DNA from: an uncultured bacterium
GTDB lineage: Bacteria; Electryoneota; AABM5-125-24; Hatepunaeales; Hatepunaeaceae
Assembly: GCA_964387885.1 (NCBI GenBank)
Contig: CAYLYZ010000084.1
Coordinates: forward strand, 1 to 25,964
DNA: 25,964 nucleotides
Direction of reading: 5' to 3'
This document shows positions 3,290 to 24,900 of this stretch, in pieces; within the stretch, counting starts at the first letter, position 1; every line of letters begins with the position of its first letter. Under the pieces are notes generated by a model that saw nothing but the letters and a program-made list of their open reading frames with translations, was not told the origin of the DNA and ran no database searches. Made by a program: the position numbers and the translations under genes.

Positions 3290-3309
3290 GGGTTGAAAAT
3301 ATTCAACCC
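3290..3309. terminator. Hairpin between convergent genes (GGGTTGAA-aata-TTCAACCC), possible bidirectional terminator
   Basis: A perfect 8-bp stem with a 4-nt loop sits between the stop at 3265 (+) and the stop at 3332 (-). There is no clear U-tract on either strand. Confidence 0.3.
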
Positions 3310-7557: not shown

Positions 7558-7627
7558 TTGACTGACATGTAATTATTGCTTACTTTGCACATATGTTATG
7601 TGATAATGGACATTTGTACACATTATG
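7558..7627 (+). promoter_or_regulatory. Putative promoter/operator region of the BMC operon: TTGACT -35-like, extended -10-like TGtGATAAT, and phased ACATnTGT palindromic motifs
   Basis: TTGACT is at 7558-7563 and TGTGATAAT at 7599-7607. ACATGT is at 7566, ACATATGT at 7589, ACATTTGT at 7610 and ACATTATG at 7620, spaced about 10 or about 21 bp apart. Confidence 0.3.
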
Positions 7628-8584: not shown

Positions 8585-8594
8585 AATAAAGAAT

Positions 8595-10004
8595 ATGAAT
8601 TCATCTGAAAAACAAATTATCGCAATAGGTTCCGATCATGGTGGTTACCAACTTAAGGAAAAACTAAAAGAATACCTGACTCGCAATGGATTCAATGTAA
8701 ATGACTGCGGAACTTTCAGCACTGAGGATGTTGACTATCCGAAATTCGCATATCTGACCGCGAAGGAAGTTTCAGATGGGAACGCACATTTCGGCATAAT
8801 CGTCGATGGTGCAGGAATTGGTTCGGCTATGACAGCAAATAAAGTTGGGGGTATACGAGCTGCACTCTGCTACGATGTTTCATCAGCAAACAACGCACGT
8901 GAACATAATAATGCCAACGTTTTAACACTGGGCTCCGGATTAATAGGGGAAAACCTGGCCAAACAGATTTGCGATAAATTCCTGTCAGTAGACTGTACCG
9001 TTGACCGACACCTTAAACGGGCAAGTATGATTGATGAACTTGACAAAGGTATAATCCCGTTTTCTGCAATTAATGCTTCAAAGACCAGCAATAAAAAGGA
9101 CAATCACCCGATGGAATTGTCAAGTCAGGATCTAACTCGTATTGCAGATCGAATACGAGAAATGCTCTCAACCGATGTTGCAGAACCTAAAAAACATCAG
9201 AGCGCTTGTGGTGATGCAAACTGTAATAATTGTGGTCATTGTGCTGAAAAAACTCCGGATACAATAAGAAAATATCTTGACCTTGGTGCGGGAAGGATTT
9301 CTCATAAATCAGGTTCAGGTTACATTCCAAAGGATATTGCTGGAATTATCGACCATACAATACTCAAACCGGATGCGACCGAAGATGACATTATCACACT
9401 TTGTAACGAAGCTCGCGAACATGGATTTGCTTCGGTTTGTGTGAATCCTACCTTTGTGTCTCTGGCAAGGAGAGAACTTGTTGGTACTGACGTTCAGGTT
9501 TGTACGGTAGTAGGTTTCCCTCTTGGTGCGCACATGTCAGAGATTAAAAGTATGGAAACCCGACGTGCTATTCGTGAAGGTGCACGAGAAATCGACATGG
9601 TTATAAATATCGGAGCCCTGAAAAGCGGGAAAGATGATCTCGTTTACGACGACATTCGCAAAGTGGTGGATGCATGCGAGGATGGAGGCGCTCTAAGCAA
9701 GATAATTATTGAAGCTGCACTTTTAACAGATGATGAAAAGATCCGAGCCTGTCAACTCTGCAAACGAGCTCGTGCCAATTATGTTAAAACCTCTACCGGA
9801 TTCGCTCCCGGTGGCGCAACAGAAAAGGATGTCGCCCTGATGAGCAGTGTGGTGAAAGACTCCGGGATAGGTGTTAAAGCTGCCGGTGGGATAAAAGATT
9901 ATAAAGATTTTGAAAAGATGGTTTCGGCAGGTGCCACGAGAATTGGTGCCAGTGCCGGGATAAAGATTGTTCAGGGAGCCAGGGAAGTTACGGTCTCGAA
10001 TTGA
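8595..10004 (+). CDS. Fusion protein: ribose-5-phosphate isomerase B (RpiB/LacAB) N-domain + deoxyribose-phosphate aldolase (DeoC/DERA) C-domain
   Basis: Residues 1-150 carry [13 protein letters not shown]...[18 protein letters not shown] (RpiB fold). Residues about 245-469 carry [12 protein letters not shown]...CVNP...YVKTSTGF, the DERA Schiff-base Lys motif. A 50-aa linker with an amphipathic helix and a C-x4-C-x2-C-x2-C motif joins them. Confidence 0.8.
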
Positions 10005-10028
10005 ATGCTGTGTGTATATCACCTGTAG

Positions 10029-10048
10029 GGGCGAATAATCATTCGCCC
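10029..10048. repeat. GC-rich palindromic element copy (GGGCGAAT-aatc-ATTCGCCC)
   Basis: A perfect 8-bp stem. It belongs to an approximately 26-nt element, TGTAGGGGCGAATAATCATTCGCCC. Confidence 0.5.
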
Positions 10049-10102
10049 TTAGTAGCAAGTGAACAGCATTTAGGTCATGTCCTACAAAGTAAGATTTGTT
10101 TT

Positions 10103-10129
10103 GGGCGAATAATTATTCGCCCCTACGAC
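10103..10129. repeat. Inverted copy of the same palindromic element (GGGCGAATAATTATTCGCCCCTACGA)
   Basis: A 20-nt perfect palindrome. Its reverse complement is near-identical to the element at 10024-10048, forming an inverted doublet about 55 nt apart. Confidence 0.5.
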
Positions 10130-10163
10130 AGTAAAATCTTTTATATAAAGGGGAGGTAAACTC

Positions 10164-10787
10164 TTGGTAGACCTTCGCGCATACGTTTTTTTAGATAGTA
10201 TTCAACCACAGTACGCGGCATATCTCGGTACAGTGGCAAAAGGTTTTTTGCCTATTGCAGGCATGGCATCGCTGTATGTCGAGATTTCACCTGGCATCGA
10301 GATCAACAGGATTACAGATATTGCTCTGAAATCGACGAACGTGACTCCCGGGATGCAAATCGTTGAGCGACTCTATGGAATGCTTGAAATTCATTCTAAT
10401 TCGCAGGCAGATGTTCGGCAAGCGGGACAAGCAATTCTCGAAGCCCTTGATCTTAAGGAAGAGGACAGGTGGAAACCAAAGATCTACTCACAGCAGGTCA
10501 TACGACGAGTGGACGACCACCAGACACAGCTAATTAACCGGATGCGGTTTGGAAATATGATTATCCCTGGTGAAACGTTATTTGTCATGGAAGTTGCTCC
10601 CGCTGCGTATGCGGCTCTTGCAGCAAATGAAGCAGAAAAAGCTGCTGAAATCAACATCCTCGATGTACGTGCATTTGGAAGTTTTGGCAGAGTCTACCTT
10701 GGTGGTGAAGAACGCGATATTGATGTCGGTTGGCGTGCTGCCGTTAAGGCAATTGAAGAAGTTACAGGAAAAGAACAATCTAAATAA
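10164..10787 (+). CDS. BMC shell protein, tandem BMC-domain (BMC-T) with 33-aa N-terminal extension
   Basis: Two canonical BMC domains are present: [25 protein letters not shown] resembles PduA ALGMVET...ADAMVKSANV, and [29 protein letters not shown]...G...[13 protein letters not shown] is the second. TTG start with a GGGAGG SD 7 nt upstream; an alternative ATG at 10263 would begin directly at domain 1. Confidence 0.55.
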
Positions 10788-10801
10788 ATTTTGGAGAAGA
10801 A

Positions 10802-11116
10802 ATGGCAGAAGCACTGGGAATGTTGGAAACACGCAGTTTTCCTGCGGTAGTCGAAGCCGCTGATGCTATGGTAAAAGCTGCAAAAGTTGAATTAGTATCA
10901 TACGAAAAAACAGGTGGCGGGTATGTCACTGCTATTATCCGTGGTGATGTAGCTGCAGTTAAAGCTGCCTGCGATGCCGGTCGTGCGGGAGCTGCGAGAG
11001 TAGGTGAAATCGTTGCTGTTCATATCATTGCCCGTCCGCATTCTAATGTTGACTTTATCATGCCGCTTGGTCGTGAGGAAGATGGCAAGGCGGGAATGGA
11101 GCGTCTTAGTAAATAG
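10802..11116 (+). CDS. BMC-H hexameric shell protein (PduA/EutM/CcmK family)
   Basis: [60 protein letters not shown] is a textbook BMC domain (PF00936). Confidence 0.9.
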
Positions 11117-11135
11117 TCGCTCTTAAGGAGGTATT

Positions 11136-11435
11136 ATGGTTCTCGCCAAAGTTGTCGGGACATTGGTTTCGACACAAAAAGAAGAGAGTCTCGAGGGGCT
11201 GAAATTCCTGATACTGCGCAATGTTGAGATCAATGGCAAAGTCGGCAAAGGTTTTGTAGTCGCAGCTGATGGTGTGGGAGCTGGTATAGGAGAAATGGTT
11301 TTGTACGCAAGTGGCAGCTCAGCCCGTCAAACCAAATTGACCGAAAACCGCCCCTGTGACTCAATTGTTATGGCAATTGTTGATAATTGGGAAGTTGACG
11401 GGAAGTTAAAGTACAAGAAGGGAGTTAACGATTAA
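11136..11435 (+). CDS. BMC-P pentameric vertex protein (EutN/CcmL/PduN family), paralog 1
   Basis: MVLAKVVGTLVSTQKEESLEGLKFLILRNV...GFVVAADGVGAGIGEMVLYASGSSAR is the EutN/CcmL signature. A strong AAGGAGG SD precedes it. Confidence 0.85.
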   Translation: MVLAKVVGTLVSTQKEESLEGLKFLILRNVEINGKVGKGFVVAADGVGAGIGEMVLYASGSSARQTKLTENRPCDSIVMAIVDNWEVDGKLKYKKGVND

Positions 11436-11486
11436 GAGTGATTATTACATATCACTCGAATTGTATGGGCACGATGCTCGTGCCCA

Positions 11487-11505
11487 TTACTTCTTTGTTC
11501 AAGGT
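11487..11505. repeat. GC-rich hairpin GGGCACG-atgct-CGTGCCC (member of GGGCR..YGCCC family)
   Basis: 7-bp GC stem followed by ATTAC, lying between the BMC-P gene and the aldehyde dehydrogenase gene. Confidence 0.5.
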
Positions 11506-11540
11506 TTCGACTTTTAATGATATCGTTATCAATCAAACAG

Positions 11541-11559
11541 GGGCACGGGCACCGTGCCC
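11541..11559. repeat. GC-rich hairpin GGGCACGG-gca-CCGTGCCC (second copy of pair)
   Basis: 8-bp stem followed by TTAC, 35 nt downstream of the previous hairpin. Confidence 0.5.
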
Positions 11560-11603
11560 TTACGCTTTAACAGCATCTAATAATTATTAATTATGGAAGA
11601 GCT

Positions 11604-13055
11604 GTGTCCCGGTTAACAGACGAACAAGTAAATATCATTGCTGCTGAAGTCATAAAGCAACTTAAACAACCTGAATCCGGAAATTCTTCAGATAGAAGCA
11701 AAACAGCTTCTGCTCCATTAACATCGTTCGGAGCAGGAATCTTTGCCGATATTGATTCAGCAGTTAAGGCTGCACGTCTGGCTCACGAAAGGCTTGTGAG
11801 TATGACACTTGAGCAACGAAAAAAAATAATTTCGAACGTTCGCAAGCGAATGCTCGAGGCAACTGAAGAATTGTCTCGAATGGCGCTCGAAGAGACCGGC
11901 CTTGGTAGGTTCGAAGATAAAATTCAGAAAAACAGACTTGTTACGCTGAAAACTCCGGGAACAGAAATTCTTCAGCCAACAGCATGGTCGGGTGACAGAG
12001 GACTTACATTGATGGAATTGGCTCCTTATGGTGTTATAGGAGCAATAACTCCTGTTACCAACCCAACATCGACGATCATATGCAATTCAATTGGCATGGT
12101 TGCTGCTGGAAACGCAGTGGTATTTAACGTTCATCCAAGTGCTAAGAATACCAGCATCAGGAATATTATCCTGCTCAATGAAGCAATAACTGAAGTTGGT
12201 GGACCGGAGAATGTCATTACATGCATATCAGAGCCTACAGTAGAGAGTGCTACTGAGCTGATGCACCATCACGGTGTCAGGTTGTTAGTCGTAACAGGTG
12301 GTGGTGCAGTAGTTAAGGCAGCTATGAACAGCGGGAAACGGGCTATTTGTGCAGGACCCGGTAATCCTCCAGCTGTCGTTGATGAAACCGCAGATATCGA
12401 TCTTGCTGCAAAAAGCATTGTTGCAGGTGCTTCTCTCGATAACAACATTATCTGTGTACTCGAGAAGACCGTCATAGCGGTTGATTCTATCTCCGATTCA
12501 CTCATTGAAGCATTTCAAAGACACAATGCGGTATTGCTGACACAAGAGCAGTTCAACCAATTAGAACCGATTATCTTCTCAAAGACTAACGGACCGCGCA
12601 AATATGCAGTGGTGGACAAAGATTTGATCGGAAAGAACATACAGGTGATTCTTTCGAAAATCGGAATGACTGTACCTGATAATATCCGACTTGCGGTGGT
12701 TGAGGTAGATGCGGATCATCCCCTGGTCTGGACTGAACAGATGATGCCGGTAATGCCATTGGTCAGGGTATCTGATGTAGATAAAGCAATTGAGCTTGCC
12801 AGGGAATCCGAACATGGTTACCAACATACAACAGTTATGCACTCGACCAACATCAACAACCTTTCAAAAATGGCGCGAGAGATGAATTGCAGTATATTTG
12901 TCAAGAATGCACCCGGACCTGCCGGCCTGGGATATAACGGCGAAGGTTATTGTTCATTCTCAATTGCGAGCCCAACCGGTGAAGGATTGACGAATGCGCG
13001 GAGTTTTTCCCGCGAGAGGCGTTGTACGTTAGTTGATAATTTCAGAATTGTATGA
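11604..13055 (+). CDS. CoA-acylating aldehyde dehydrogenase (PduP/EutE-like BMC aldehyde dehydrogenase) with N-terminal encapsulation peptide
   Basis: GTG start. ELAPYGVIGAITPVTNPTSTIICNSIGMVAAGNAVVFNVHPSA and the catalytic Cys motif LDNNIICVLEKTV match PduP/EutE. The N-terminal amphipathic helix TDEQVNIIAAEVIKQLKQ plus a Ser/Ala linker looks like an encapsulation peptide. Confidence 0.85.
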   Translation: MSRLTDEQVNIIAAEVIKQLKQPESGNSSDRSKTASAPLTSFGAGIFADIDSAVKAARLAHERLVSMTLEQRKKIISNVRKRMLEATEELSRMALEETGLGRFEDKIQKNRLVTLKTPGTEILQPTAWSGDRGLTLMELAPYGVIGAITPVTNPTSTIICNSIGMVAAGNAVVFNVHPSAKNTSIRNIILLNEAITEVGGPENVITCISEPTVESATELMHHHGVRLLVVTGGGAVVKAAMNSGKRAICAGPGNPPAVVDETADIDLAAKSIVAGASLDNNIICVLEKTVIAVDSISDSLIEAFQRHNAVLLTQEQFNQLEPIIFSKTNGPRKYAVVDKDLIGKNIQVILSKIGMTVPDNIRLAVVEVDADHPLVWTEQMMPVMPLVRVSDVDKAIELARESEHGYQHTTVMHSTNINNLSKMAREMNCSIFVKNAPGPAGLGYNGEGYCSFSIASPTGEGLTNARSFSRERRCTLVDNFRIV

Positions 13056-13663
13056 TTAGAAGATATCCTGCAATAGCCCTGCTTGAATTATCCGGAATCT
13101 CCCGTGGTGTCGTAACAAGCGATGCAATGGTCAAACGAGCTCCGATAACGATGATAAAGTCGGGGACGATCTCGGAAGGTAAGTATCTTATCCTCGTCGG
13201 GGGAAGTGTCGCTTCAGTCGAGGAAGCTTTTGCTGCCGGAATGTCAATCGGGGGAAATTCAATTATCGATCATGTAATCCTGCCGGATGTTCATACCCAG
13301 GTTCACGATTCGATACTCGGAACAAAACGTAAACCAGCTGCTGATGCATTGGGATTAATTGAAACGAGCACTGTAGCTGCAACTATCAGATCGATGGATG
13401 CTGCGATCAAAAGTACAAAGATAGATATTGTCGAATTGAGGTTGGGTGATAACCTTGGCGGAAAAGCATTTGCTATATTCTCCGGCAAGGTCGAAGATGT
13501 ACAAACTGGAATGGACATTATTCATGAAGTATCAGGCGGGAAAGAGTATTTGACTGCAGAAGAGATTATCCCGAGATTGGCTGATGTGATAGGCAAACAA
13601 CTCGAATCAGGCAGCAGATTTGCTGAAATCAGGGCCAGCATATTAGAAGACGGGGAGCTCTGA
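13052..13663 (+). CDS. BMC-T tandem-domain shell protein (PduT-like)
   Basis: Two BMC domains: IALLELSGISRGVVTSDAMVKRAPITMI... and ALGLIETSTVAATIRSMDAAIKSTKIDIV... It overlaps the aldehyde dehydrogenase stop by 4 nt (ATGA). Confidence 0.75.
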   Translation: MIRRYPAIALLELSGISRGVVTSDAMVKRAPITMIKSGTISEGKYLILVGGSVASVEEAFAAGMSIGGNSIIDHVILPDVHTQVHDSILGTKRKPAADALGLIETSTVAATIRSMDAAIKSTKIDIVELRLGDNLGGKAFAIFSGKVEDVQTGMDIIHEVSGGKEYLTAEEIIPRLADVIGKQLESGSRFAEIRASILEDGEL

Positions 13664-13664
13664 T

Positions 13665-13952
13665 ATGATGTTGGGAAGGGTATTCGGTACTGTCACGGTC
13701 AGTGTAGTTTACGAGGGATTGGAGGAGACTCCGATGCTGCTCGTGCAGCCTCTCGATAAACGCCAACAGCCTGAAGGTGATTTCGTTGTCGCAGCCGATC
13801 CGACACGAATGGCAGGACCGGGCGAGCTGATATACTACGAAGCCAGCCGCGAAGCCGCCTTACTGTGTGATCCCTGGTTCGTCCCTGTAGATCATGCGAT
13901 AGTTGGGATAGTCGACGACGTCCACCTCTCAAACCACCCGGACGAGCAATGA
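13665..13952 (+). CDS. BMC-P vertex protein (EutN/CcmL family), paralog 2
   Basis: MMLGRVFGTVTVSVVYEGLEETPMLLVQPLD...DFVVAADPTRMAGPGELIYYE is an EutN-like fold signature. Confidence 0.75.
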   Translation: MMLGRVFGTVTVSVVYEGLEETPMLLVQPLDKRQQPEGDFVVAADPTRMAGPGELIYYEASREAALLCDPWFVPVDHAIVGIVDDVHLSNHPDEQ

Positions 13953-14209
13953 AAATCGGACGCGTCAGCGGAACTCTGCACAGCACTATCAACCATCCTT
14001 TTTACGACAACAGGAAAATCCTCGTCGTAGACTTGCTAAGCCCGGACAAAACCGAAACCGGAAAATACTTGATCGCATTAGATGTTGTTGATGCCGGAGT
14101 AGGGGAGACGGTGCTGATCGTTGATGAAGGCAACTCCGCCCGGCAGGTTTTTGATGCGAAGAATGGCCCTGTCCGGTCTGTGATTGTAGGAATTGTAGAC
14201 GAATATTAG
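13949..14209 (+). CDS. BMC-P vertex protein (EutN/CcmL family), paralog 3
   Basis: MKIGRVSGTLHSTINHPFYDNRKILVVDLLSPDK...YLIALDVVDAGVGETVLIVDEGNSARQ. There is an ATGA overlap with the previous gene. Confidence 0.8.
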   Translation: MKIGRVSGTLHSTINHPFYDNRKILVVDLLSPDKTETGKYLIALDVVDAGVGETVLIVDEGNSARQVFDAKNGPVRSVIVGIVDEY

Positions 14210-14507: not shown

Positions 14508-17500
14508 GTGAAGCACATCATCTTCCTTTTTGTGATTGTTCTCTTTTTAGCAACCTCATCATACGCGCTGGATGAAGTGAAGATATGTCCTGCAGAACAT
14601 CATGCGGGTGATATGTTCGGGACAGCAGTTGCTGTTGATGGAGACTATATGGTTGTCGGTGCCATAGGATATGATGTCGGTGAAGATCAAAATGTCGGAT
14701 CAGCTTATGTGTTCCACTGGGATGGTGATGAGTGGATCGAACAAACCAGAATTCAGCTTGATGATCGATCGGGTAGTGATAATTTTGGTGCAGCAGTCGA
14801 TATAGCAGGTGATTATATCATTGTCGGAGCTCCTAACGAAGATCCTGGAGGTGAAGATAATGCGGGTTCAGCCTGGATCTACATGAGGAATGGTCAGAAT
14901 TGGGATTTCCAGGCTCAGATTGTTTCCCGTAATCCATTTCCCAACGAAAATTTTGGTGCAGCGGTTGTGATAAATGGGAATATGGCTGTAGTCGGTTCCG
15001 CAGGTAGCGATACTTCTTGTGTTTATGCTCGCGATGGTGCAAATTGGGACCATACGTACCGAACATTATCGCAACAGGTGGGAGCAGGTTATGGCGATTT
15101 TATTAGCATGCATGGAAATAGTTACGTAATTTCCGGATATAATTTAAGTGTTTCAGGGCAAGCTGGTGCAGGTCAAGCATTTGTAAACATTTTTGATGGT
15201 CAGAACCTTGCCCTACAAGGAATAATAAATTCTTCTACTCCTACAACGAATGGACATTTTGGATGGGATTGTTCAATATTCGGTGATATACTTCTGGTCG
15301 GCGCGTCAGGTGACTCAATAGTTGATGTATATCAGGGAGCAGCATATATTTTCGAAAGAAATGCCGGAAACTGGAGTCGAACTGACAAACTCTTTTCGGA
15401 TGTTGAACCTGGTGATGGTTACGGAAAAGGTGTTGCAATCAACAACGATTATGCTGTAATAGGCGCACCTGATAATGATGCTCAAGAAATTGCAAATTCT
15501 GGCATTGTCTTTCTATTTGAATCCGATGAAGGCAACTGGAATGAATTGGGATCAATTGTTCCGGATGATGCTCACGAAAACATGCATTTCGGCCAAAACC
15601 TCGCGTTAAGTGACACTCTGATCTTCAGCGGATGCCCTGATGCAACAGTCGAAGGATCTGCCGGTGCCGGTGCAGTTTATATGTTCGTTGTGAATTCACC
15701 ACCAGCAGTTACAGTGATTGATCCCAATGGTGGTGAAGTGCTTGTAGAGAATACCGAATTCGAAATAGAGTGGGAAGTCGAATCGATGCAGGACATTGTG
15801 CAAAACACAATTGAGTATTCAGCTGATAATGGCCAGAACTGGTCACAGATTGGAACCACTGATGATGATGATTACGATTTCGAATGGACTATTCCTGACA
15901 CATTCTCAACGAGTTGCCTTATAAGAGTAACAGCTGAAACTGATGACCAGGAAGGATCAGATGTTTCAAATGCAACTTTCACGATTGTGACAATACCTGA
16001 TGTAGTTGTTTCTGTTCCCGATGGAGGTGAACAATACCAAACCGACGAAGAGGTCACAATCGAATGGGATGTGACAAATGAACCGGACATTATTGAAAAC
16101 GTTGTAGAATATTCCACAGATGGCGGAGATACCTGGATAAATATAGGAGCAACCCAGGATGAAGATTTTGATATCGTGTGGATAATTCCTGACATATACA
16201 GTCTTTATACAGTTGTTAGAGTGAGATCAACCAATGAATACGATGTTGAAGGTTATGATATTTCCGATGATTGGTTCATAATTGTACCGACATCGGCAAG
16301 TTATACCTTCTACCGCGGCTGGACTTTCTTCAGTCTGCCTTATACCCCGGATGACAACAGTGTCGAAACTCTGATCGAAGCTGGTATTATCGACCATATG
16401 CCCTGGGATTTGTTCGGATTTGACATGTCCACTGCTTACTACCGTCCTGAAGAACTGTTTGTAGGCAATGGTTACATGCTCACAATGTATCAGGATTCGT
16501 TGGAAATGTCGTTTGATTGCGAAGCCGGAATTGAACAGGTAGACTGGGAACTGGATCTGGGATGGAATCTGATTGGAGTACCGTTCGGTCAACCCCTTAC
16601 GGTAGAAAACCAAACATTGAACCATGAAGGTGAGTTATATACTATTGCAAATGCTGCGGACTCACTTTTATGCGTCCCAATCTTTTATGACTGGAGTGCC
16701 CAGGATAGTGCCTACCTGATTGCTGATGTTCTTGATGTTTGGAAGAGTTATTACTTCGTAGCACTTGACACAATGGTGCTTAATCTGTTCCCCGCACCTC
16801 CCGGACCTGTACCAACTGCAATTGATGACGTTCCGGGCACAATCGAGGCATGGCAATTGAATATCATTGCCGAAATGGATGGAAAACGCGATCCTCTGGC
16901 TGCCATCGGTGCCAATGCTTATGCTACGGACGGCTTTAATCCCGCATTCGACTATCCCGAACCTCCAAACGGCAACATCAGCCAGGTAGTTAATACCTAT
17001 TTCGAAGAAGAAGAATGGATACCAAACTTCGCCACTACTTTCTGCCGTGACATCCGCGAGCAAATGGTTGAAGAAGAAGACGTATGGACGATGTTCGTTT
17101 CGACAATCCGTCCTGGTGATGTCACGCTGACATGGGATGATATTTTCGACACCACTCCGGCAGGTTACGAATTTGAGATTAACGATCCAGCGGCGGATGT
17201 GACAATAAATCCAAAGGCTGAAGCTTCATACACGTTCTACAACGAAGGCACAAGTGAAATCGTAATCAGAGCTTTCGCTTCGCTGAATGTCAAGAATAGA
17301 GTCGAGATACCGAGCACCCACAACCTGCTAACAGCCTATCCAAACCCATTTAATTCAACTTTAAGCATCACCATGGATCTACAGTCAAGTTCTAACGTTA
17401 CGCTTAGCGTTTTCGACCTGAACGGAAAGCTGGTAGATACCGTGCTGAACGGCTCAATGGAAGCTGGCACTAACGAACTGAAATGGGATGCTAAAGGCAT

Positions 17501-17576
17501 TACAAATGGTGTTTATATCATCAGATTGCAGACCAGGACTCAAGAAGCGACTCAGAAGGTTCTTTTGATGAAGTAA
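14508..17576 (+). CDS. Secreted FG-GAP (integrin-alpha-like) beta-propeller protein with two tandem Ig-like repeats and T9SS C-terminal sorting domain
   Basis: GTG at 14508 lies 5 nt after a GGAGG SD and gives a clean signal peptide, KHIIFLFVIVLFLATSSYA; the ORF track's TTG at 14490 is an alternative. It has repeated FGxAVxxxGDYxVVGAP motifs. Two ~100-aa repeats of the form GGExL/YxxxExxIEWxV...IEYSxDxGxxWxxIG lie at about 15700-16290. The C-terminus is YPNPFNSTLSITM...GVYIIRLQ. Confidence 0.7.
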   Translation: MKHIIFLFVIVLFLATSSYALDEVKICPAEHHAGDMFGTAVAVDGDYMVVGAIGYDVGEDQNVGSAYVFHWDGDEWIEQTRIQLDDRSGSDNFGAAVDIAGDYIIVGAPNEDPGGEDNAGSAWIYMRNGQNWDFQAQIVSRNPFPNENFGAAVVINGNMAVVGSAGSDTSCVYARDGANWDHTYRTLSQQVGAGYGDFISMHGNSYVISGYNLSVSGQAGAGQAFVNIFDGQNLALQGIINSSTPTTNGHFGWDCSIFGDILLVGASGDSIVDVYQGAAYIFERNAGNWSRTDKLFSDVEPGDGYGKGVAINNDYAVIGAPDNDAQEIANSGIVFLFESDEGNWNELGSIVPDDAHENMHFGQNLALSDTLIFSGCPDATVEGSAGAGAVYMFVVNSPPAVTVIDPNGGEVLVENTEFEIEWEVESMQDIVQNTIEYSADNGQNWSQIGTTDDDDYDFEWTIPDTFSTSCLIRVTAETDDQEGSDVSNATFTIVTIPDVVVSVPDGGEQYQTDEEVTIEWDVTNEPDIIENVVEYSTDGGDTWINIGATQDEDFDIVWIIPDIYSLYTVVRVRSTNEYDVEGYDISDDWFIIVPTSASYTFYRGWTFFSLPYTPDDNSVETLIEAGIIDHMPWDLFGFDMSTAYYRPEELFVGNGYMLTMYQDSLEMSFDCEAGIEQVDWELDLGWNLIGVPFGQPLTVENQTLNHEGELYTIANAADSLLCVPIFYDWSAQDSAYLIADVLDVWKSYYFVALDTMVLNLFPAPPGPVPTAIDDVPGTIEAWQLNIIAEMDGKRDPLAAIGANAYATDGFNPAFDYPEPPNGNISQVVNTYFEEEEWIPNFATTFCRDIREQMVEEEDVWTMFVSTIRPGDVTLTWDDIFDTTPAGYEFEINDPAADVTINPKAEASYTFYNEGTSEIVIRAFASLNVKNRVEIPSTHNLLTAYPNPFNSTLSITMDLQSSSNVTLSVFDLNGKLVDTVLNGSMEAGTNELKWDAKGITNGVYIIRLQTRTQEATQKVLLMK

Positions 17577-17642: not shown

Positions 17643-17666
17643 CATCAAGTTCTTCGATTATTGAAT

Positions 17667-17693
17667 GTGGAGTGCTCAAGCCACGCTTGAGCA
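17667..17693 (+). repeat. REP copy 1 (GGAGTGCTCAAGCCACGCTTGAGCA), followed by second hairpin TCGAAGC-aaa-GCTTCGA
   Basis: Palindromic stem TGCTCAAGC/GCTTGAGCA. The same unit recurs five more times around the transposase gene. Confidence 0.7.
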
Positions 17694-17770
17694 TCGAAGC
17701 AAAGCTTCGAACAAAACTGATACTGAGTTCATGCGTTAACTCGATGCAAAACTTTCCATCCAACAAAATA

Positions 17771-17794
17771 GCTCAAGCATGGCTTGAGCACTCC
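17771..17794 (-). repeat. REP copy 2 (inverted orientation)
   Basis: GCTCAAGCATGGCTTGAGCACTCC is the reverse complement of GGAGTGCTCAAGCCATGCTTGAGC. It lies 9 nt from the transposase stop. Confidence 0.7.
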
Positions 17795-17802
17795 ATAATC
17801 CT

Positions 17803-18324
17803 CTAAAAGTCATCAACAATATTTAATCTATCTATCGGCAATGATAATATCTCATTATAAAATCCCTTTTTACTATTCTCAATAAACCAACCTGCAGAAC
17901 AAAACGGGTAATCCAGGGGATTTTCAACCAAACCATGTTTTACCGGATTGTAGATCACGTATTTCATTCTGGCAAAATAGCTTTTTTCATTGCTAATGCA
18001 AGTATCCCAGTATTGATACCAAATTCTCCTGCCCGGACAGTAATCTATCTTATTTACCAATCGCGAAGCCTGAGAATGTATTCTTTGAATTGTGTTCTTC
18101 AGAGGTTTAGAATCTTCAGTGGAACATGCAATCAGATGATAATGATTTGCAAACACTGCCCAGGCAAGTATTTGCCAGTTATATTCATCCAAAACGTCCA
18201 ATATAGTTTTAGTCAGGATTGATAACTTTTTTTCTGTGTTAAAGAATTTTGCTTTCTGGTAGGTACTTGCAGTGATTATATAAAACGAGTTGTGTTGAAA
18301 AATGTGTAAAGGTCTGTGAGACAT
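17803..18324 (-). CDS. REP-associated tyrosine transposase (RAYT; IS200/IS605-like HUH Y1 transposase)
   Basis: 173 aa with the HUH motif (ANHYHLI) and a C-terminal catalytic Tyr motif, YVIYNPVKHGLV. It is flanked by inverted REP copies. Confidence 0.75.
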   Translation of the reverse strand: MSHRPLHIFQHNSFYIITASTYQKAKFFNTEKKLSILTKTILDVLDEYNWQILAWAVFANHYHLIACSTEDSKPLKNTIQRIHSQASRLVNKIDYCPGRRIWYQYWDTCISNEKSYFARMKYVIYNPVKHGLVENPLDYPFCSAGWFIENSKKGFYNEILSLPIDRLNIVDDF

Positions 18325-18337
18325 TCTTATGTCCTTC

Positions 18338-18483
18338 TGGAGTGCTCAAGCCATGCTTGAGCGTTTGCGAAAATTATTCAAAACAAAAAGCTAAATTATG
18401 GAGTGTTCAAGCCATGCTTGAGCGTTTGCGAAAATTATGCAAAACTCCAATCTATTTGTGGAGTGCTCAAGCCATGCTTGAGC
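18338..18483 (+). repeat. Tandem ~62-bp repeats each beginning with a REP (copies 3, 4, 5)
   Basis: The units are GGAGTGCTCAAGCCATGCTTGAGCGTTTGCGAAAATTATTCAAAAC..., then GGAGTGTTCAAGCCATGCTTGAGCGTTTGCGAAAATTATGCAAAAC..., then GGAGTGCTCAAGCCATGCTTGAGC. Confidence 0.7.
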
Positions 18484-18564
18484 TTAAAAGAAATTAATCC
18501 GAAGTTTATATATAAATACAACTTAAATTTAACTACCACCCATCTTTCGAAGCTTCACTTCGAT

Positions 18565-18589
18565 GCTCAAACATGGCTTGAGCACTCCA
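18565..18589 (-). repeat. REP copy 6 (inverted), with adjacent CGAAGC-ttcac-TTCG second hairpin as in copy 1
   Basis: The reverse complement, GTGGAGTGCTCAAGCCATGTTTGAGCATCGAAGTGAAGCTTCGAAAG, aligns with copy 1 plus its second hairpin. Confidence 0.65.
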
Positions 18590-18668
18590 CAGATCACAAC
18601 ATCCTATCGAACCAAACTAACCGTCCTGACCACAGAAATCACTTGCTTTTCAACAGTGATTAGAAAAT

Positions 18669-20915
18669 TTATTGGTCTTCTTTCTCTTTTTTAGGGCTCT
18701 GTTTCCCGTTTGCCCAATCGTTCAGAAGATGTGCACCACGTTTTCTAACTTCCGGGTCATCAAACTTGATGAGTTGGTGAGCAATCCAAAATTTTAATTC
18801 ATCTTGTCTGATATATGTTCTAATATTAAAGGTCTCTCTTGCACATTTGATCCTGAAATCTCTATTTGGGTGATTATAGCACTTTATTAGAATCTTTTTA
18901 CTTAAATACCCGATTCTTATTCCAATACCAACAATCTCTCTTGCGATATGAAATGGAGAATCATCGAGAATATCTAATATTTTCTGTTCCGCATCTAATA
19001 TTTGTTCTCCTAATTCTCCAAGCTTATGATATGACCATTTAACAACTGGAAAATCTCCCTTATTCAAGTTATACAAAAAACCATAAAACGCTTTATCTCC
19101 CATCGAGTCGTACAGGTATTTGAATTGTATTCTGCCTTCTGAAATAGTATCTCTTTCGGTATCAATTCTAATCCAGGCAGAACTCACGAGCTTGAACAAT
19201 TTAAGTGAAAGCTCAGGTGAATCTTTTACTAGATTGTAGACAAGTGTTCTTGCTGGAAAATCCAGTGCATAAACCACAGCTAATTGATCCAGAAAAGGAA
19301 ATAGAAGTGAATCTGCAGTTGAATAATAGTTTTGGAGAAAAACCAAATCCTTATTGTCAAGATCATGCCTTAAGAAAAGGTTTTCAATTAGTAACTCAGA
19401 TGATTTTAGATTCTTCGGAAAAAATTCATTAAACAACTTCTGGTAAGCGAACTTTATTTTCCGGTCTTTTGATTTCAATGAATCAAGCACAATTTGATGT
19501 ATATCTGTCGTATCTTTGGCAATGTCAAATATATATTCCTTAAGCTGTTGTTTCATAATGCTGTCTTTATTTGAGTCATAATCAAACCTCATTGTCATGG
19601 TATAAATTAGTTTATCCAAAGAAGACCTTGATAATGTATCATTGAGCATTTTCAGGTATCTGAGACCCTCATAAAAACATGCTGATGGAATTAATTCTAT
19701 AACTGTATTAATTAACGGATGAGTTGATTCACCTATGGCAACGAGATCACGAAGTATCTTTTTTCTGGTTTCTGCATACTCAATATAGAATTGATTCGGA
19801 AATTCGTCGACATATTCTTCATCGCCATAGCTCAAGTCACAAATTACAGAATCACGATAATGGTTCCAATCAGATTCTACTATTCTACCAATGAGAATCT
19901 CATTGATATGTGGTAAAAGCGAATCAATTCTTGAATGCTCAATTTTCATTAGCGTGATTAGAAAATCAATTCTCGGTAAATCTGCGATCCCGTCGAGTTT
20001 GATAAGTTCCTGTACAGTGCTTTGTGCAGACGCACCCATGTTTCCAAGAACTCTTAGGGCAAAAGTGATCTCTTCAGTCGTCCCTGATTTCAACTTTCTA
20101 AAAAGAAAATCGATTTTATCCGAGGAAGTCTCATTTGAAATATAAAGTTCTTTTAGGAAAATGTAGTCTCTGTAATCTACTCCACTTAAGAAATCGAAGA
20201 TCACTCGAATTGCTCTATCGTGGGTATCAACAGTTATACTGTCAATCTCTACAATTCCCGTGCTATCGCTAAAATAAAATACAGAAAAGAATTCATAAAT
20301 ATCCATGTCATAAAAATTTCTAAATTTCTCATCTGAAAGCTGATAAAAATCATTAAGTGCCTTTGTTGCTAATGGATTATTGTAGTTTATAATAAAAGTT
20401 TTTCTGAGATTTTTGACGACATCAGGCTCTGAGAGATCATATCCGGAAAACGAGTTAATTTCTTCCTTATAATAAACATCGAGCAAATCTTCGTTCAGGA
20501 CATCTTTGCCATTTAGCTTAAAAAATAAGTTTATAGCATGAACACTATATCCTGAGTATTTTGCGATGTTATTAACAATAATTCTGTGGAGTTCGGGATC
20601 AGGTTCTCCGGATAATTGTTTTAGTATTGTAAGTGATTCCGGAAAAAACTCCTCTTCACCGAGGAGTTCCATTGCCGGTTTTCGAAGTTCATCCTCTTTG
20701 TCTAAGGCAATTGAGAATATTAACTCTTTATAATAGTCTGAATTTTCTTTAATGTGTTTAAGGGCTTGATATTTCAGCTGATCATTACTTTTAACGGCAG
20801 CGATATATTCTCTTTGAGTTAGGTGATTCATTGGTTGCCCTTTGCAATCAACTGAAAAAATAACCACAGTTAGAAAAAGAAGTGCTTTCTTCAATCCTTG
20901 ATTTTTTAATCTCAT
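18669..20915 (-). CDS. Hypothetical secreted protein (748 aa), AT-rich, no recognisable domain
   Basis: Signal peptide MRLKNQGLKKALLFLTVVIFSVDCKGQ. The composition is Lys/Asp/Phe/Tyr/Ile-rich and predicted alpha-helical. Coding is plausible because the ORF is long with an AAGGTG SD. Codon usage is visibly more AT-rich than neighbouring genes. Confidence 0.55.
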   Translation of the reverse strand: MRLKNQGLKKALLFLTVVIFSVDCKGQPMNHLTQREYIAAVKSNDQLKYQALKHIKENSDYYKELIFSIALDKEDELRKPAMELLGEEEFFPESLTILKQLSGEPDPELHRIIVNNIAKYSGYSVHAINLFFKLNGKDVLNEDLLDVYYKEEINSFSGYDLSEPDVVKNLRKTFIINYNNPLATKALNDFYQLSDEKFRNFYDMDIYEFFSVFYFSDSTGIVEIDSITVDTHDRAIRVIFDFLSGVDYRDYIFLKELYISNETSSDKIDFLFRKLKSGTTEEITFALRVLGNMGASAQSTVQELIKLDGIADLPRIDFLITLMKIEHSRIDSLLPHINEILIGRIVESDWNHYRDSVICDLSYGDEEYVDEFPNQFYIEYAETRKKILRDLVAIGESTHPLINTVIELIPSACFYEGLRYLKMLNDTLSRSSLDKLIYTMTMRFDYDSNKDSIMKQQLKEYIFDIAKDTTDIHQIVLDSLKSKDRKIKFAYQKLFNEFFPKNLKSSELLIENLFLRHDLDNKDLVFLQNYYSTADSLLFPFLDQLAVVYALDFPARTLVYNLVKDSPELSLKLFKLVSSAWIRIDTERDTISEGRIQFKYLYDSMGDKAFYGFLYNLNKGDFPVVKWSYHKLGELGEQILDAEQKILDILDDSPFHIAREIVGIGIRIGYLSKKILIKCYNHPNRDFRIKCARETFNIRTYIRQDELKFWIAHQLIKFDDPEVRKRGAHLLNDWANGKQSPKKEKEDQ

Positions 20916-21360
20916 TCAAATCACCTTAAAGAAATCATTTTTTCACTCCTGTTATTTCCGAATACTAAACTGAACATACGTCGCGTGGCATAGTCTGGCT
21001 TGCCCAGACATGATTCATATATTTAAAAATAACCGATTTCGGCAGATCGTTATCAGCCCTAAAAGACTTTTAATGACTCGTGTCCGTATGAGCAGATACA
21101 CCACCCATATTGCAATTTAGAGCACAAATGAAGAATTAGCAAATGTGTACAGGAGGCAAATAGTAAATGCCCATCGGGGAAGTAAATATCGACCGTCTCG
21201 TACTTATCAACCCTTGCAAGCTGTACGGAAATGTAAATTCCCAACCTGCAAACAGACTGTCTTGGAATGCCGAATAGAGTGCCCGACATGCATCCCCGCC
21301 TGATAAAAAAACAACCACTTATACACCCGAACACCACATCACTTGGTCTCCTGGTCACAT

Positions 21361-21510
21361 ATTTCCGTCATTTCCATTACCTTTTTGTCACTGCCGTTAC
21401 TTATTTGCTATTTTCGTTACTTTTCATCAACATCGTCACATTTCCGTCACACCCTCTATCCCATACCCACAACCGCTTTCCGCAAATTGTGTGACGATGT
21501 GACGGAAATT
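21361..21510. promoter_or_regulatory. Array of GTCAC/GTTAC/GTGAC half-sites with interleaved inverted repeats (ATCGTCACA...TGTGACGAT; TTTCCGTCAC...GTGACGGAAA)
   Basis: TTTCCGTCA occurs at 21362, TTGTCAC at 21386, CGTTAC at 21395 and 21415, and ATCGTCACATTTCCGTCAC at 21432-21450. TGTGACGATGTGACGGAAAT lies at 21490-21509, so the two inverted pairs are each about 59 bp apart. Confidence 0.35.
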
Positions 21511-21549
21511 TTCACCTACCCCATACTTTCCTTTACTTTGTGATGAAAC

Positions 21550-21578
21550 TTGACTTTTTCAAAATTATGTTGTATATT
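21550..21578 (+). promoter_or_regulatory. Near-consensus sigma70-type promoter (TTGACT-17 nt-TATATT with TG immediately upstream of -10)
   Basis: TTGACT is at 21550-21555 and TATATT at 21573-21578. There is no + strand ORF downstream; the downstream 200 nt contain three hairpins. Confidence 0.35.
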
Positions 21579-21653
21579 GTCTACATATTTTTCGTATATA
21601 TCATGAAAAGTCACGAACTTAGTAGCAATGTCTTGAAAGAAATTACAAATATG

Positions 21654-21683
21654 CGCAGGGGCAATTCGTGAATTGCCCATGCG
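21654..21683. repeat. GC-rich hairpin CGCAGGGGCAATTCgtGAATTGCCCATGCG (GGGCR..YGCCC family)
   Basis: 9-bp core stem plus a 4-bp outer extension with one G.A mismatch. Confidence 0.5.
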
Positions 21684-21708
21684 GGAATGGAAATATTGAC
21701 AGGGAAGA

Positions 21709-21728
21709 GGGCACGTAGCAACGTGCCC
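21709..21728. repeat. GC-rich hairpin GGGCACGT-agca-ACGTGCCC
   Basis: Perfect 8-bp stem, 25 nt downstream of the previous hairpin; the paired arrangement matches the other two sites. Confidence 0.5.
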
Positions 21729-21730
21729 GT

Positions 21731-21767
21731 ACAAAAATAAAGCTGGCAGACGAGAACGCCTGCCAGC
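21731..21767 (-). terminator. Probable Rho-independent terminator of the tricorn-like protease gene (minus strand)
   Basis: On the minus strand the hairpin CTGGCAG-gcgttctcgt-CTGCCAG is followed by CTTTATTTTTGT. It lies about 145 nt after the stop at 21913. Confidence 0.5.
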
Positions 21768-21912
21768 ACAAAAAGTCAATTTTCCAAAAACACCGTTCGA
21801 ATTGCTAACTCACAAAGTTAAAATTCAGATAACAACAAAAAAATCCGTTAAATCCAATTAATCAGTTGTGAATAATAAACTTGCGAACTTGAAAACTTGT
21901 AAACTTTCAAAC

Positions 21913-24900
21913 CTACCGATCAAACCTACTCCGATCCGGATAGGGGGGAGGGTCAGGTATAGGCATTGGTTCGGTTTCCAACTTATTGAGCAGATAGTCA
22001 ATCGTCGCATCAAGCTGCGGATCTTTGCCGTCGAACTCGGCTGTGGGGTGTTCCTTGACTATGATGTCGGGATCGGTTCCCCAGCCTTCGATACGGTAGC
22101 TGCCGTTCAAGTTCCAGCCGGTGAACTCGGGCTGGGTCAAGCCGCCGCGGTCAACCAGCGGTTTATCACCGCGGATTCCTACCCAGCCGCCCCAGGTGCG
22201 GGTGCCGATGACGGGACCGAGTTTCATGTCCTTAAAGCCGTCTGTGAATGTTTCTCCGTCTGAGCCTGTCTCGCCATTGCATACTGCAGCCATGTGGCCG
22301 TAGAATGCTGTTCCCGGTCCTCTATAGGTCGCTCCGTGCCGAGGACGACCTACTGAAACCAATTGCCGTCCCAGATGGGACAGGATCATTTCTGCTACAA
22401 ATCCGCCGCCATTGTAGCGGACATCCATAATCAAAGCCGGTTTCCGGTGCTGTGGTTGGTAGGCTGCTGTGAATTGCGACAGACCAAAACCACCCATGTT
22501 AGAGAGGTGGATGTAGCCGATTTTGCCATCGCTCTTTTCAGATACATATTCCTGCCTGCCGTCGACCCACTCCCAGTAACGTAATCCGCGTTCGATGCCA
22601 AGTGGTTTGATTACGATCTCATGACTGCCTTTTGCTTCAGGCTTCGAGTTGATCGCCAAACTGGTGATCTTGTTCGCACGGTTGACTAGCAGTTCAAAGA
22701 TGGTTGTGGATTCTAATACTGATCGTCCGTTGACAGCGATTATGTAGTCTCCATTTTGAACTTTGACACCTGGTTCTGCGAGCGGACTGCTCAATCCCTC
22801 TTCCCACGGCCTACCCTTGATGATACGGTCGATACGATAGTATCCGCTCTTGTGATGACTGATGTCAGCACCGAGCAATCCGGTTGGGTGTCTTTCCGGA
22901 CGTCGCTGATCACCACCGCCGACGTAAGTATGCGAGCAGTTCAATTCAGCAAACATCTCGCCGATCAGATCATTCAGTTCGTCACGGGTGGAAATCCTGT
23001 CTGCAAGTGCGTTATACTTGTCGTATTCCGCCTGCCAATCGACCCGGTGCATATCAGGCGTCCAGAAGAAATCACGTTGGAAACGCCAGGATTCGCGGAA
23101 CATCTGTTTCCATTCCGGACGAACTTCGACGCGTAAATCCCAGCCTTTCAGGTTAACTTTCTGTTTCTCTTCCGCATCTTCAAATCCTTCTGCATCAATA
23201 CCCTTTACAATGAACTCACCATCTTTGTAAACCATCAACTTTTCACCTTCGATGGAGATATCATAGCCCCTGATACCTTTTGCGAGTATCTTGTGTTTCT
23301 TTCGCTTGAGGTTGAACTTATGGAGAGGTGAACCTTTAGGTCGCTTTTCGTGTTTTGACCGGTTGAACATGCCTCGGTTTTGGTGGGACATGTAAAACAC
23401 GTTGTTTTTGACTGCGTTCAAGCTGTGATAGTTTCCGGGAGCAATGGGGAAGGGGACTAAACGATCAACCAGACCGTCAAAGTCGATTTCAACTTTCACG
23501 ACTTCCTTCTTTTCCTTTTTTCCCTTTTTGCCTTTTTTCCCTCTCTTCCCCCTTTTACCCTTTTTCCCGTCTTCACCATCGTCATCTTCCCCGTCTTCAT
23601 CCCACTCGTCGTCACCGCCTGCAGGATCAGCTTCGGATAAGAAGGGTGATTCAGTCTCATCAGTCAACATCACAGCGTATAACATCGTTCGTCGGTCGAG
23701 GATGTAGGTCATCTCTTTTCCGTCAAGATGGGGATTTGCTACACGGTCAGACAGGAAATACAGATATTTGCCTTCAGGATCAAATACAGGGTTGTAGCTG
23801 CTGGTATAGTCATCAGTTACAGCGTAAGTCTCATGTGATTTCGAGTCCCAGATCCATACAGTATTGTTGTAATTTGGTTCCGGGCGTGAATAGGTGAGGA
23901 AACGCCCATCTCCCGACCAGCGATAATTCCTTATTTCCCAGGATCCCTGATCGACGATTTCCTTTTTCCCCGATTTCAGATCCATAACAATAAGCTGCTG
24001 TTCTTCATTTGTGTAGGCAATAGTTTTCCCATCCGGTGAAGGAACTGGTGGAAAATTCCAACCCATGTTGTCGTCACCGATAATGCTCCGGTCTCCACCT
24101 TTTGCCGGGATTCGGTACAACACTTCTTCACCGGTTTCATCTGCCCAGAAGAAAATCTCCTCACCATCAGCAGACCAATTAGGGAATTTCTCGCGTACTC
24201 CGGAATCGAAAGTCAACTGCCTTATTAATCCCTCACCTTTTGTTGGTGCTGTAAATAACTCACCTCTTGCACAGAACAGAACACGCTTTCCGTCTGGTGA
24301 TAAAGAGTAGTTTGACATATATTTCTTTGGATCGACATATTTGACTCTTGCCTGAACACGATCAGTAGGGAGATCAATTGGGATAATCTTTGATTTTCCG
24401 GTCTTGACATTGTACACATAGATGTCCATCCCGTTCTGGTAAACAATCTGATCACCGAACATTGCCGGCCAGCGGACATCGAAATCAGCGTATTTAGTTT
24501 GCTGAACCAAATCGCTGCCATCAGGTTTCATTGACCAGATGTTTGCACGGGTGTCACGATCGGTCAGGTAGTAGATCCGTCCGTTATTATGCCACATTGG
24601 GAATGCATCAGTTCCATCCCAGTCGTTTATTGAGGGATTGTCAGTAAGGTTTACAAATTCGTCGGTTTTCAGGTTCCCAACCCAGATATCCTGCGCCCAG
24701 CCGCCCTTATAGCGCTTCCAGTGACGGAATTCACGTGAATAACGGTTGAAAGCTATGCGGTTGCCATTGGGTTCGTAACTGATCAGGGAAGCTTTGGTTA
24801 TTCTGATCCCTTCGGGAAATGATCCATCCGGTGAAACCTTATAGATCCGATAACCTCGAAAAGGGATTTCACGAGATGACCTGAACAATATCTGACCATC

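Follow-up and report, generated by a model that had tools for sequence, protein, structure and literature searches.

An operator-like repeat cluster in the composite spacer beside a tricorn-type protease gene of an uncultured Calditrichota-like bacterium

The half-site array and the conserved block

The DNA analysed here (the window, 25,964 nucleotides) is part of a chromosomal contig of an uncultured marine Calditrichota-like bacterium, in which a spacer of approximately 1 kb (20916-21912) lies between a 748-aa gene and the gene of a tricorn-type S41 protease, both on the minus strand (Table 1). An earlier note, made from the letters alone, described in this spacer an array of short half-sites, a promoter and a cluster of three hairpins, and all of these features are present where it had placed them. 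Most of the region is ordinary; its one noteworthy element is a partly conserved, operator-like cluster of repeats. Analysis of the sequence leads us, tentatively and with confidence that stops short of even, to read the spacer as a composite intergenic region rather than an RNA gene, in which the site cluster may form a platform for protein binding to double-stranded DNA at the edge of a low-GC variable island. The part nearest to tricorn is that gene's 3' trailer, consisting of a terminator and then an inverted doublet of palindromes resembling repetitive extragenic palindromes (REPs).

The half-site cluster exceeds chance. Cores of the form GTYAC start on the plus strand at 21354, 21387, 21396, 21416, 21435 and 21446, within a stretch that is 72% pyrimidine on that strand (21354-21451), and GTRAC cores start at 21491 and 21499. 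Six same-strand GTYAC cores thus fall within 100 bp, whereas 200 dinucleotide shuffles of the window gave a maximum per 100 bp of 2.4 on average and of 4 at most, which bears out the array of GTCAC and GTTAC half-sites that had been reported from the letters. Seven of the 28 matches to TTTCCGTCAC with at most two mismatches in the 26-kb window are concentrated in 175 bp (21362-21536), and a cluster of at least three CGTYAC sequences per 60 bp occurs once in 1.4 Mb of other loci, a count that leaves out loci fetched by means of the CGTYAC pattern. Autocorrelation of the array peaks at lags of 9, 19-20 (z = 3.7 at lag 20) and 29, a moderate phasing, and the phase statistic does not reach significance when confined to the six strict cores (p ~0.11). 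The intrinsic curvature conferred by the phased T-tracts places the array at ranks 13-15 among 2585 windows, which is notable but not unique, and as a single strand the direct array is unusually unstructured.

Two pairs of units recur as exact inverted repeats, ACATCGTCACA/TGTGACGATGT and ATTTCCGTCA(C)/(G)TGACGGAAAT, with a start-to-start distance of 58 bp, for which the earlier note had given about 59. The inverted copies stand in the order A'B' and not B'A', and are spaced by 8 bp as opposed to 11 bp in the direct array. A single inverted duplication would not yield this swapped order and different spacing, which suggests that the units were selected singly; it is single units, rather than the product of one duplication event, that seem to be maintained. 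A further inverted copy, farther downstream (21603-21628), scores 26, where shuffles average 20.1 (sd 2.2).

Comparison with relatives shows which parts of the cluster are shared. The closest genome is the metagenome-assembled genome 'Calditrichaeota bacterium co234_bin30' (L008), with a tricorn protein 88% identical to that of the window, and a third lineage, P0004 (contigs L103-L106), has a tricorn protein that is 84% identical by BLASTP and 85% identical in a full alignment. The block at 21466-21565 is 76% identical over 101 nt to the contig ends of L103, L104 and L106 (blastn E = 9e-14). As the tricorn genes of the window and the L103 lineage are only 40% identical at four-fold degenerate sites, neutral DNA should no longer align between these lineages; by this measure the block, which comprises the inverted YCGTCAC pair and its flanks, is conserved in sequence far above neutral sites. 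In L103 it begins approximately 45 nt past the tricorn terminator and retains the inverted pair as AAATCGTCACTTCGTCACAC. Its best-kept parts are the inverted site pair (TCGTCAC-N-TCGTCACAC), GCGGAAAGCG, TGTGGG and GATGAARCTTGAYTTTT-CAAAAT, the last of which holds the -35-like hexamer; as read from the alignment, the distance between this part and the site pair is kept at 44-45 bp. The stretch 21566-21700, with the -10 hexamer, the third inverted copy and hairpins 1 and 2, is without a counterpart in L103. The conservation that was to be sought in related genomes is therefore found for the inverted pair and its block in L103; the block is absent from L008 and L107 (the 88% lineage), L008's own spacer has no array, and the direct array would lie beyond the ends of the L103 contigs. 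In the relatives at the 65% level, other genes follow tricorn directly, so that there is no spacer for comparison, and no more copies of the motif or of GGGC palindromes were found in an extra 9 kb of the same genome or in L008.

These comparisons also bear on the possibility that the cluster is without function, a decayed minisatellite of 10 or 20 bp with local rearrangements in a fast-evolving, AT-rich spacer. Such an origin would suit a spacer that gathers repeats (REP-like palindromes, a decayed 64-nt duplicate, an 8-bp tandem repeat, an insertion of 135 nt), an array whose direct units are degenerate and receive no call from the Tandem Repeats Finder (TRF), and a module without which the 88% lineage lives; but the identity of the block stands far above that of the four-fold sites, the site cores are the most conserved positions in it, and slippage yields no exact inverted copies in swapped order, so that we judge this origin distinctly unlikely. 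The label of repeat-rich junk, which had also been offered for the region, partly fits the remainder of the spacer, with its REP-like copies, its decayed duplicate and its 135-nt insertion with an 8-bp tandem repeat.

All three contigs of the third lineage in ENA (L103, L104 and L106, from SPAdes assemblies) stop at the exact base equivalent to 21466, and for the window's own population the Logan assembly is interrupted at 21445-21463. Both sets of breaks lie in the DNA that separates the inverted site pairs, and a repeat, a structural variant or low coverage could be the cause. They invite an explanation that we consider unlikely, in which block and array are the end, or the relic of an end, of a site-specifically inserted mobile element: read on the minus strand, TGTGGG would be its terminus and the repeats behind it subterminal binding sites for a transposase or recombinase, and the insertion point would be a hotspot just past the tricorn terminator with the low-GC 748-aa gene as cargo. 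Multiple subterminal transposase-binding sites are a feature of transposon ends such as those of Tn7 (the TnsB sites) and IS21 (multiple terminal repeats), and the likeness extends to the TGTGGG on the inner strand followed by closely packed direct repeats of about 20 bp, to an outward promoter, which is typical of such ends, and to a position just past a conserved gene and beside low-GC cargo, with assembly breaks at the junction. In the L103 lineage, three independent assemblies stop just after TGTGGG, the block is found in two lineages and missing from a third that is equally distant, the segment 17577-21711 is low in GC and unshared with the closest genome, which has a different gene there, and neither 5.8e9 clustered proteins nor 1.84e9 representatives include a homolog of the 748-aa gene. 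On the other hand, no transposase, integrase or Rep gene lies in the island except that of a REP-associated tyrosine transposase (RAYT), which acts on REP hairpins; the window holds no second end with the same sites; the conserved inverted pair would fall outside an element ending at TGTGGG; searches for plasmid, phage and IMG/VR similarity gave no match; and the 8-13 public contigs that carry the island all show it in one single context. Were the mobile end nevertheless real, it would mark a hotspot where ORFan genes enter Calditrichota genomes. Very unlikely, in our estimation, is that the YCGTCAC pair, the block and the array constitute an undescribed insertion or recombination hotspot past the tricorn terminator in marine Calditrichota, as the end of a mobile or hypervariable cassette system with ORFan cargo, no recognisable transposase or integrase of its own and an enzyme supplied in trans. 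Such a system would account at once for the retention in two lineages out of three, for an ORFan of low GC, and for assemblies from independent samples that stop at one and the same base.

Table 1. Coordinates of the features in and around the spacer
Feature	Position	Strand	Details
Low-GC (33-40%) segment	17577-21711	.	RAYT gene and REPs, 748-aa ORFan, most of the spacer; missing from closest genome
RAYT-flanking hairpin copies (TGGAGT-GCTCAAGC..; TGGAGT-GCTCAAGCCATGCTTGAGC)	17668, 17771 (inverted), 18338, 18399, 18459, 18566 (inverted)
RAYT gene	17803-18324	-	NF047646, 106 bits (cut-off 80), E = 1.5e-30
748-aa gene	18669-20915	-	start adjoins spacer
Best sigma-70-like site for the 748-aa ORFan, ATGCCA-18-TAGTAT (8/12)	20962-20991	-	ends 47 nt before ATG; weak; putative assignment
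Decayed direct paralog of the 64-nt F unit	21131-21193	+	holds AGGAGG and ATG of the 36-aa open reading frame; 506 bp away
36-aa open reading frame, called by public gene finders	21167-21277	+	probably spurious; no family match
Direct array, ~10 units (T-rich tract and YCGTYAC)	21354-21451	+	~10-bp period, 20-bp super-period
Conserved non-coding block	21466-21565	.	CCCACA, spacer GCGGAAAGCG, inverted site pair, GATGAAACTTGACTTTTTCAAAAT including -35-like hexamer
Inverted copies of the two best units (TGTGACGA TGTGACGG AAAT)	21490-21509	-	8-bp period; swapped order
Sigma-70-like site TTGACT-17-TATATT (10/12)	21550-21578	+	best such site in the spacer; not above chance
Inverted copy of two further units, ATGAAAAGTCACGAA..TAGCAA versus TTGCTATTTTCGTTACTTTTCAT at 21405-21427	21603-21628	-	repeat I2; weak support
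64-nt repeat unit with palindrome F (hairpin 1)	21637-21700	+	extended stem 21654-21683; core GGGCAATTC..GAATTGCCC; tag GCAG
REP-like palindrome G (hairpin 2), GGGCACGTTGCTACGTGCCC	21709-21734	-	5' tag GTAC on minus strand
Intrinsic terminator of the tricorn-like protease gene (hairpin 3)	21742-21767	-	GCTGGCAGGCG-TTCT-CGTCTGCCAGC then TTTATTTTTG
Lineage-specific stretch of ~135 nt	21768-21905	-	between tricorn stop and terminator; missing from all three relatives
Tricorn-type S41 protease gene, 1120 aa	21913-25275	-	stop adjoins spacer

The hairpin cluster and the promoter candidate

The three stable hairpins of the earlier note are real, and the cluster that they form folds better than shuffles on both strands (z ~-6). 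Judged by its sequence, hairpin 3 is the minus-strand intrinsic terminator of the tricorn gene, as had been proposed, and is kept in three close lineages: a GC-rich stem of 11 bp with a loop of 4 nt is followed on the minus strand by the T-run TTTATTTTTG, and no other terminator-like site is present in 20700-22100. At stem position 9 the sequence reads as a G.U pair on the minus strand, which becomes an A.C mismatch on the plus strand. In L008 and L107 (88% aa identity) and in L103 (84%), this hairpin lies 12-15 nt past the tricorn stop; in the window the distance is 145 nt because of the lineage-specific insertion, which includes an 8-bp tandem repeat (AAACTTGC, 4.5 copies) at 21877-21912. 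It resembles known rho-independent terminators in having a GC-rich stem-loop and a U-run downstream of the gene on the gene's own strand, and differs from them in its distance from the stop and in the recurrence of its stem after another gene in L103. The stem (CTGGCAGACG..CGTCTGCCAG) is duplicated in that contig (3580-3603 and 9146-9173), the second copy, at 3580-3603, following an unrelated gene, and the tricorn terminator may itself be a dispersed palindromic repeat. Two pieces of the inserted stretch (21844-21857 and 21891-21908) resemble one contiguous stretch of an LVIVD gene (2188-2219).

Hairpins 1 and 2 are, by sequence, members of a REP-like family of GTAG/CTAC-tagged palindromes. 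Each has a perfect 8-bp stem and a 4-nt loop (F at 21659-21678, G at 21709-21728), and a scan of the window for the same GGGY..RCCC type found five others, at 3290-3309, 10029-10048, 10103-10122, 11465-11487 and 11541-11559, all of them intergenic and approximately 20 nt long. Palindrome G aligns with the six other members and, over 26 nt that include its flank, matches the one at 11461-11485 with 88% identity. These seven palindromes occupy four spacers and form three inverted doublets with the tags outside, at spacings of 50 nt (F and G), 74 nt (10029 and 10103) and 76 nt (11465 and 11541). GTA(N) is the tag of six of the seven (GTAG three times, and GTAA, GTAT and, at 21709, GTAC once each), and that at 21659 is GCAG. 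In the relative L103, non-homologous loci contain the same GGGTTGAA type and two further CTAC-tagged palindromes (1046, 2334 and 5159), and a decayed counterpart of palindrome G is found in L008 and L107. The occurrence of the family in inverted pairs in other spacers, and in a relative, is what identifies it as REP-like. The decayed paralog of the 64-nt F unit gives a local alignment score of 57, compared with a shuffle mean of 21.6 (sd 2.9) and maximum of 36. Two of the inverted doublets sit in spacers of a microcompartment (BMC) operon elsewhere in the window.

REPs tagged with GTAG measure 20-40 bp and are found in inverted pairs downstream of genes (PMC3733652). The palindromes described here are like such REPs and their doublets (BIME/REPIN-like) in measuring about 20 nt and, for most copies, bearing an unpaired tag of GTA(G) type at one end, in their extragenic location downstream of genes or between co-directional genes, in their inverted pairs 50-76 nt apart, in comprising several sequence types per genome with the same type at unrelated loci of a relative, and in the presence of a RAYT gene in the window, 3.4 kb away. 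They are unlike them in that seven copies in approximately 35 kb of genome leave a high copy number unproven, in that the tags of hairpins 1 and 2 are GCAG and GTAC rather than GTAG, and in that the RAYT gene is bordered within the window by six copies of a different hairpin, TGGAGT-GCTCAAGCC(A/C)(T/C)GCTTGAGC, and not by the GGGY..RCCC type to which hairpins 1 and 2 belong. Three of these six copies make up a 61-bp tandem repeat (18338-18483) in the RAYT region (17660-18595).

The promoter that had been described as strong and near consensus is present on the plus strand as TTGACT-17-TATATT, matching 10 of 12 positions, but its strength is not borne out: a site of at least 10/12 occurs in 36% of shuffles of the 1-kb region, and the scan found three sites where 3.5 were expected. 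The host does use promoters of the TTGACA/TATAAT type, for four of six intergenic sites of at least 10/12 are correctly placed upstream of genes. L103 keeps the -35 hexamer as TTGATT, with a TAnnnT hexamer (TACTTT, on our reading of the sequence) 16 nt downstream; the -10 is not conserved, and no promoter of at least 9/12 is present on either strand there. The candidate is therefore neither better than chance nor conserved, as a functional sigma-70 promoter would be. On the minus strand, no site of at least 9/12 is present in 20916-22100 or in the L103 tail.

It is on this promoter and these hairpins that the idea of a structured small RNA (sRNA) rested. An sRNA or antisense RNA, starting at about 21585 from the promoter and consisting of the three hairpins, would act in trans or on the 3' end of tricorn; in its favour are the promoter, which is the best sigma-70-like site in the spacer, the retention of the -35 and its flanks in L103 with TACTTT 16 nt downstream, and the fold z of -6. 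We hold such an RNA to be highly improbable, as shuffles so often provide an equally good promoter, L103 has no site of at least 9/12, the absence of 21566-21700 from L103 puts hairpins 1 and 2 outside any conserved transcript, the palindromes fold as well on one strand as on the other and find their explanation in a terminator and REPs, and no hairpin in the region is followed by a T-run on the plus strand. Because the terminator and the REP-like doublet account for the hairpin cluster, its sRNA-like appearance does not come from an RNA gene. The search of Rfam that had been proposed as a check returned no match at the gathering score in the whole window; with E values up to 10 allowed, 20700-22100 gave three matches (E = 2.6-8.5) far below gathering, to eukaryotic snoRNAs and a frameshift site. 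ARAGORN found no tRNA or tmRNA genes, and the only 100-nt windows to fold better than their shuffles are those of the hairpin cluster and the inverted repeat. A caution for other REP-bearing genomes follows, in which a terminator, REP-like palindromes and a promoter at chance level can mimic an sRNA gene.

The inverted repeat raises the separate question of a minus-strand RNA, for it folds at -31.7 kcal/mol on that strand and -20.8 kcal/mol on the plus strand, a difference that arises because one position is G.U on the former and A.C on the latter. Both neighbouring genes are on the minus strand, and the array, read on that strand, is purine-rich with several GGA motifs; a long 5' leader of the 748-aa ORFan, a read-through or an independent transcript could thus present a 17-bp hairpin (21509-21440) and purine-rich repeats (GUGACGGAAAU...) to an RNA-binding protein. 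This RNA element seems to us very doubtful: the minus strand has no promoter of at least 9/12 in the stretches scanned and no terminator past the array, the inner spacer helix is lost in L103, where substitutions shift its register (in part a hand analysis), the array is unstructured, and Rfam holds no match to it.

That the region has no convincing open reading frame (ORF) is confirmed by the eight ORFs examined, which have no match in Pfam or NCBIfam and codon scores that are negative or non-significant (within the spurious range); neither coding statistics nor homologs point to a small-protein gene. Their reported lack of ribosome-binding sites needs correction for the 36-aa ORF, the only one called by gene finders here, which has an AGGAGG 10 nt upstream, inside the decayed copy of hairpin 1. 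Its codon log-likelihood ratio of +0.137 is reached by 6% of spurious ORFs, and on these grounds it is probably spurious. A hydrophobic 43-aa ORF was considered as a type-I-toxin-like gene and rejected: it is without a ribosome-binding site, overlaps the promoter, and shares only its first seven codons with L103, where the ORF has 16 codons.

A possible protein-binding platform

With the hairpins accounted for, the array and the conserved block are the part of the spacer to which we would tentatively assign a function at the level of DNA. The cluster would act in double-stranded form for a sequence-specific DNA-binding protein, several protomers of which would line up head to tail on one face of the helix along the direct array with its ~10-bp phase; the inverted pair 40-60 bp away, and the weaker one 170 bp away, would allow bridging or looping, and the platform would control transcription that starts in the spacer. 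The best candidate by sequence for such a start is the plus-strand TTGACT promoter: its -35 falls within the conserved block, at a distance of 45 bp from the pair, and its transcript would run antisense into the 3' end of tricorn. The earlier proposal of binding sites for a dimeric or looping protein gains support from the excess of the array over chance and from the conservation of the block with the inverted pair above four-fold sites. If the operator is genuine, it offers an 8-11-bp motif (YCGTCACA) and a conserved module of 100 bp as bait for a regulator in an uncultured phylum, and the module may control antisense transcription into a large secreted protease gene.

Several observations weigh against this platform. 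The plus-strand promoter does not exceed chance, and L103 has not kept its -10; the direct array lies at -230 to -135 from the candidate start at 21585, farther upstream than typical activator sites; and no regulator gene adjoins the array. The 88% lineage is without the whole module, and the conservation that is seen rests on one lineage whose contigs stop inside the element, with the direct array beyond comparison; the high identity of the block could, moreover, be that of a shared mobile sequence instead of a product of purifying selection. Lastly, the better fold of the inverted repeat as a minus-strand RNA leaves room for a role as RNA.

Two further kinds of array invite comparison with the putative platform. 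Tandem direct-repeat operators are bound by regulators of the OmpR/PhoB family, among them F1-F3 of ompF, the pho boxes and the direct repeat units of Streptomyces PhoP. The array is like these in its T-rich tract and G(T/C)(T/C)AC core recurring every 10-11 bp on one helix face, and in its 20-bp double units within a contiguous array of many units; it is unlike them in standing 135-230 bp upstream of the candidate start rather than at -100 to -40, in its inverted copies, and in the lack of a response-regulator gene in the window. At the rep promoters of theta plasmids (pSC101, pPS10), iteron arrays are found together with inverted-repeat operators, and the spacer shares with these approximately 4.5 direct units of about 20 bp, inverted copies of part of the unit, and a sigma-70 promoter beyond them. 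It departs from them in that no rep gene or other ORF stands behind the promoter, the inverted copies are clear of the -35 and -10, the context is chromosomal, and there are no DnaA-box cluster and no plasmid match. An iteron-type origin was accordingly rejected in spite of the 20-bp period, as there is no rep gene or ORF and the orientation of the genes, convergent and co-directional, is not that of an origin; a chromosomal origin (oriC) was rejected for want of a DnaA-box cluster. The ends of Tn7 and IS21, for which the window provides neither transposition genes (RAYT aside) nor a matching opposite end, and with which a conserved site pair outside the putative terminus does not accord, complete the comparison. 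Since each of these systems fails in at least one defining feature, the array is not filed under any of them.

Checked by eye only, CRP-type TGTGA-N6-TCACA sites, sigma-54 sites, IHF sites, integron attC and dif did not fit. A scan of metagenomes for ATTTCCGTCAC-N25-55-GTGACGGAAAT gave 11 matches, none of them related to the window; eight are long perfect palindromes, and the other three are low-GC, apparently eukaryotic contigs with TGTGACGGA clusters of their own. The latter (L091 837-912, L097 79-138 and L100 93-340) carry fragments of reverse transcriptase, microsatellites and dense clusters of (T)TGTGACGGA(A/C) in both orientations, which may be subterminal repeats of a eukaryotic transposon. 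A literature search for 10-mers of the array found only primers and unrelated matches.

The low-GC island and the neighbouring genes

Comparison with L008 delimits the island in which most of the spacer lies. What is conserved is limited to the genes for tricorn and L31, the final part of a gene of the type IX secretion system (T9SS; 17316-17563), and 21712-21770, which holds the terminator and part of hairpin 2; the 4.1 kb in between are low in GC in the window; in their place L008 carries a gene for a 1313-aa LVIVD protein. No relic of that gene was found in the region by tblastn, or by tblastx against all loci, and a derivation of the spacer as a pseudogene or relic of a neighbour's gene was rejected on these results. 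Identical copies of the locus are present in several JGI, ENA and Logan assemblies, in which the region is 100% identical and so carries no information on polymorphism.

The 748-aa protein has a signal- or lipoprotein-like N-terminus, and its gene has 33% GC and normal codon statistics. Searches of 5.8e9 clustered proteins and, by a full HMMER pass, of 1.84e9 representatives returned only the protein itself, and peptides of the protein gave no match in a metagenome scan; by its sequence it is a true ORFan. The candidate promoter of this gene is near its ATG and approximately 370 bp from the array.

The genes farther from the spacer include a microcompartment locus (7625-14209) encoding a SorC-type regulator, an RpiB-DeoC fusion, BMC-H/T and EutN shell proteins and an aldehyde dehydrogenase, which is bordered by T9SS-sorted LVIVD and FG-GAP proteins. 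Within the tricorn gene itself, short tandem repeats at 23503-23603 encode a low-complexity insert rich in D, E and K (..DDEWDEDGEDDDGEDGKKGKRGKRGKKGKKGKKEKKE..) in the middle of the protease.

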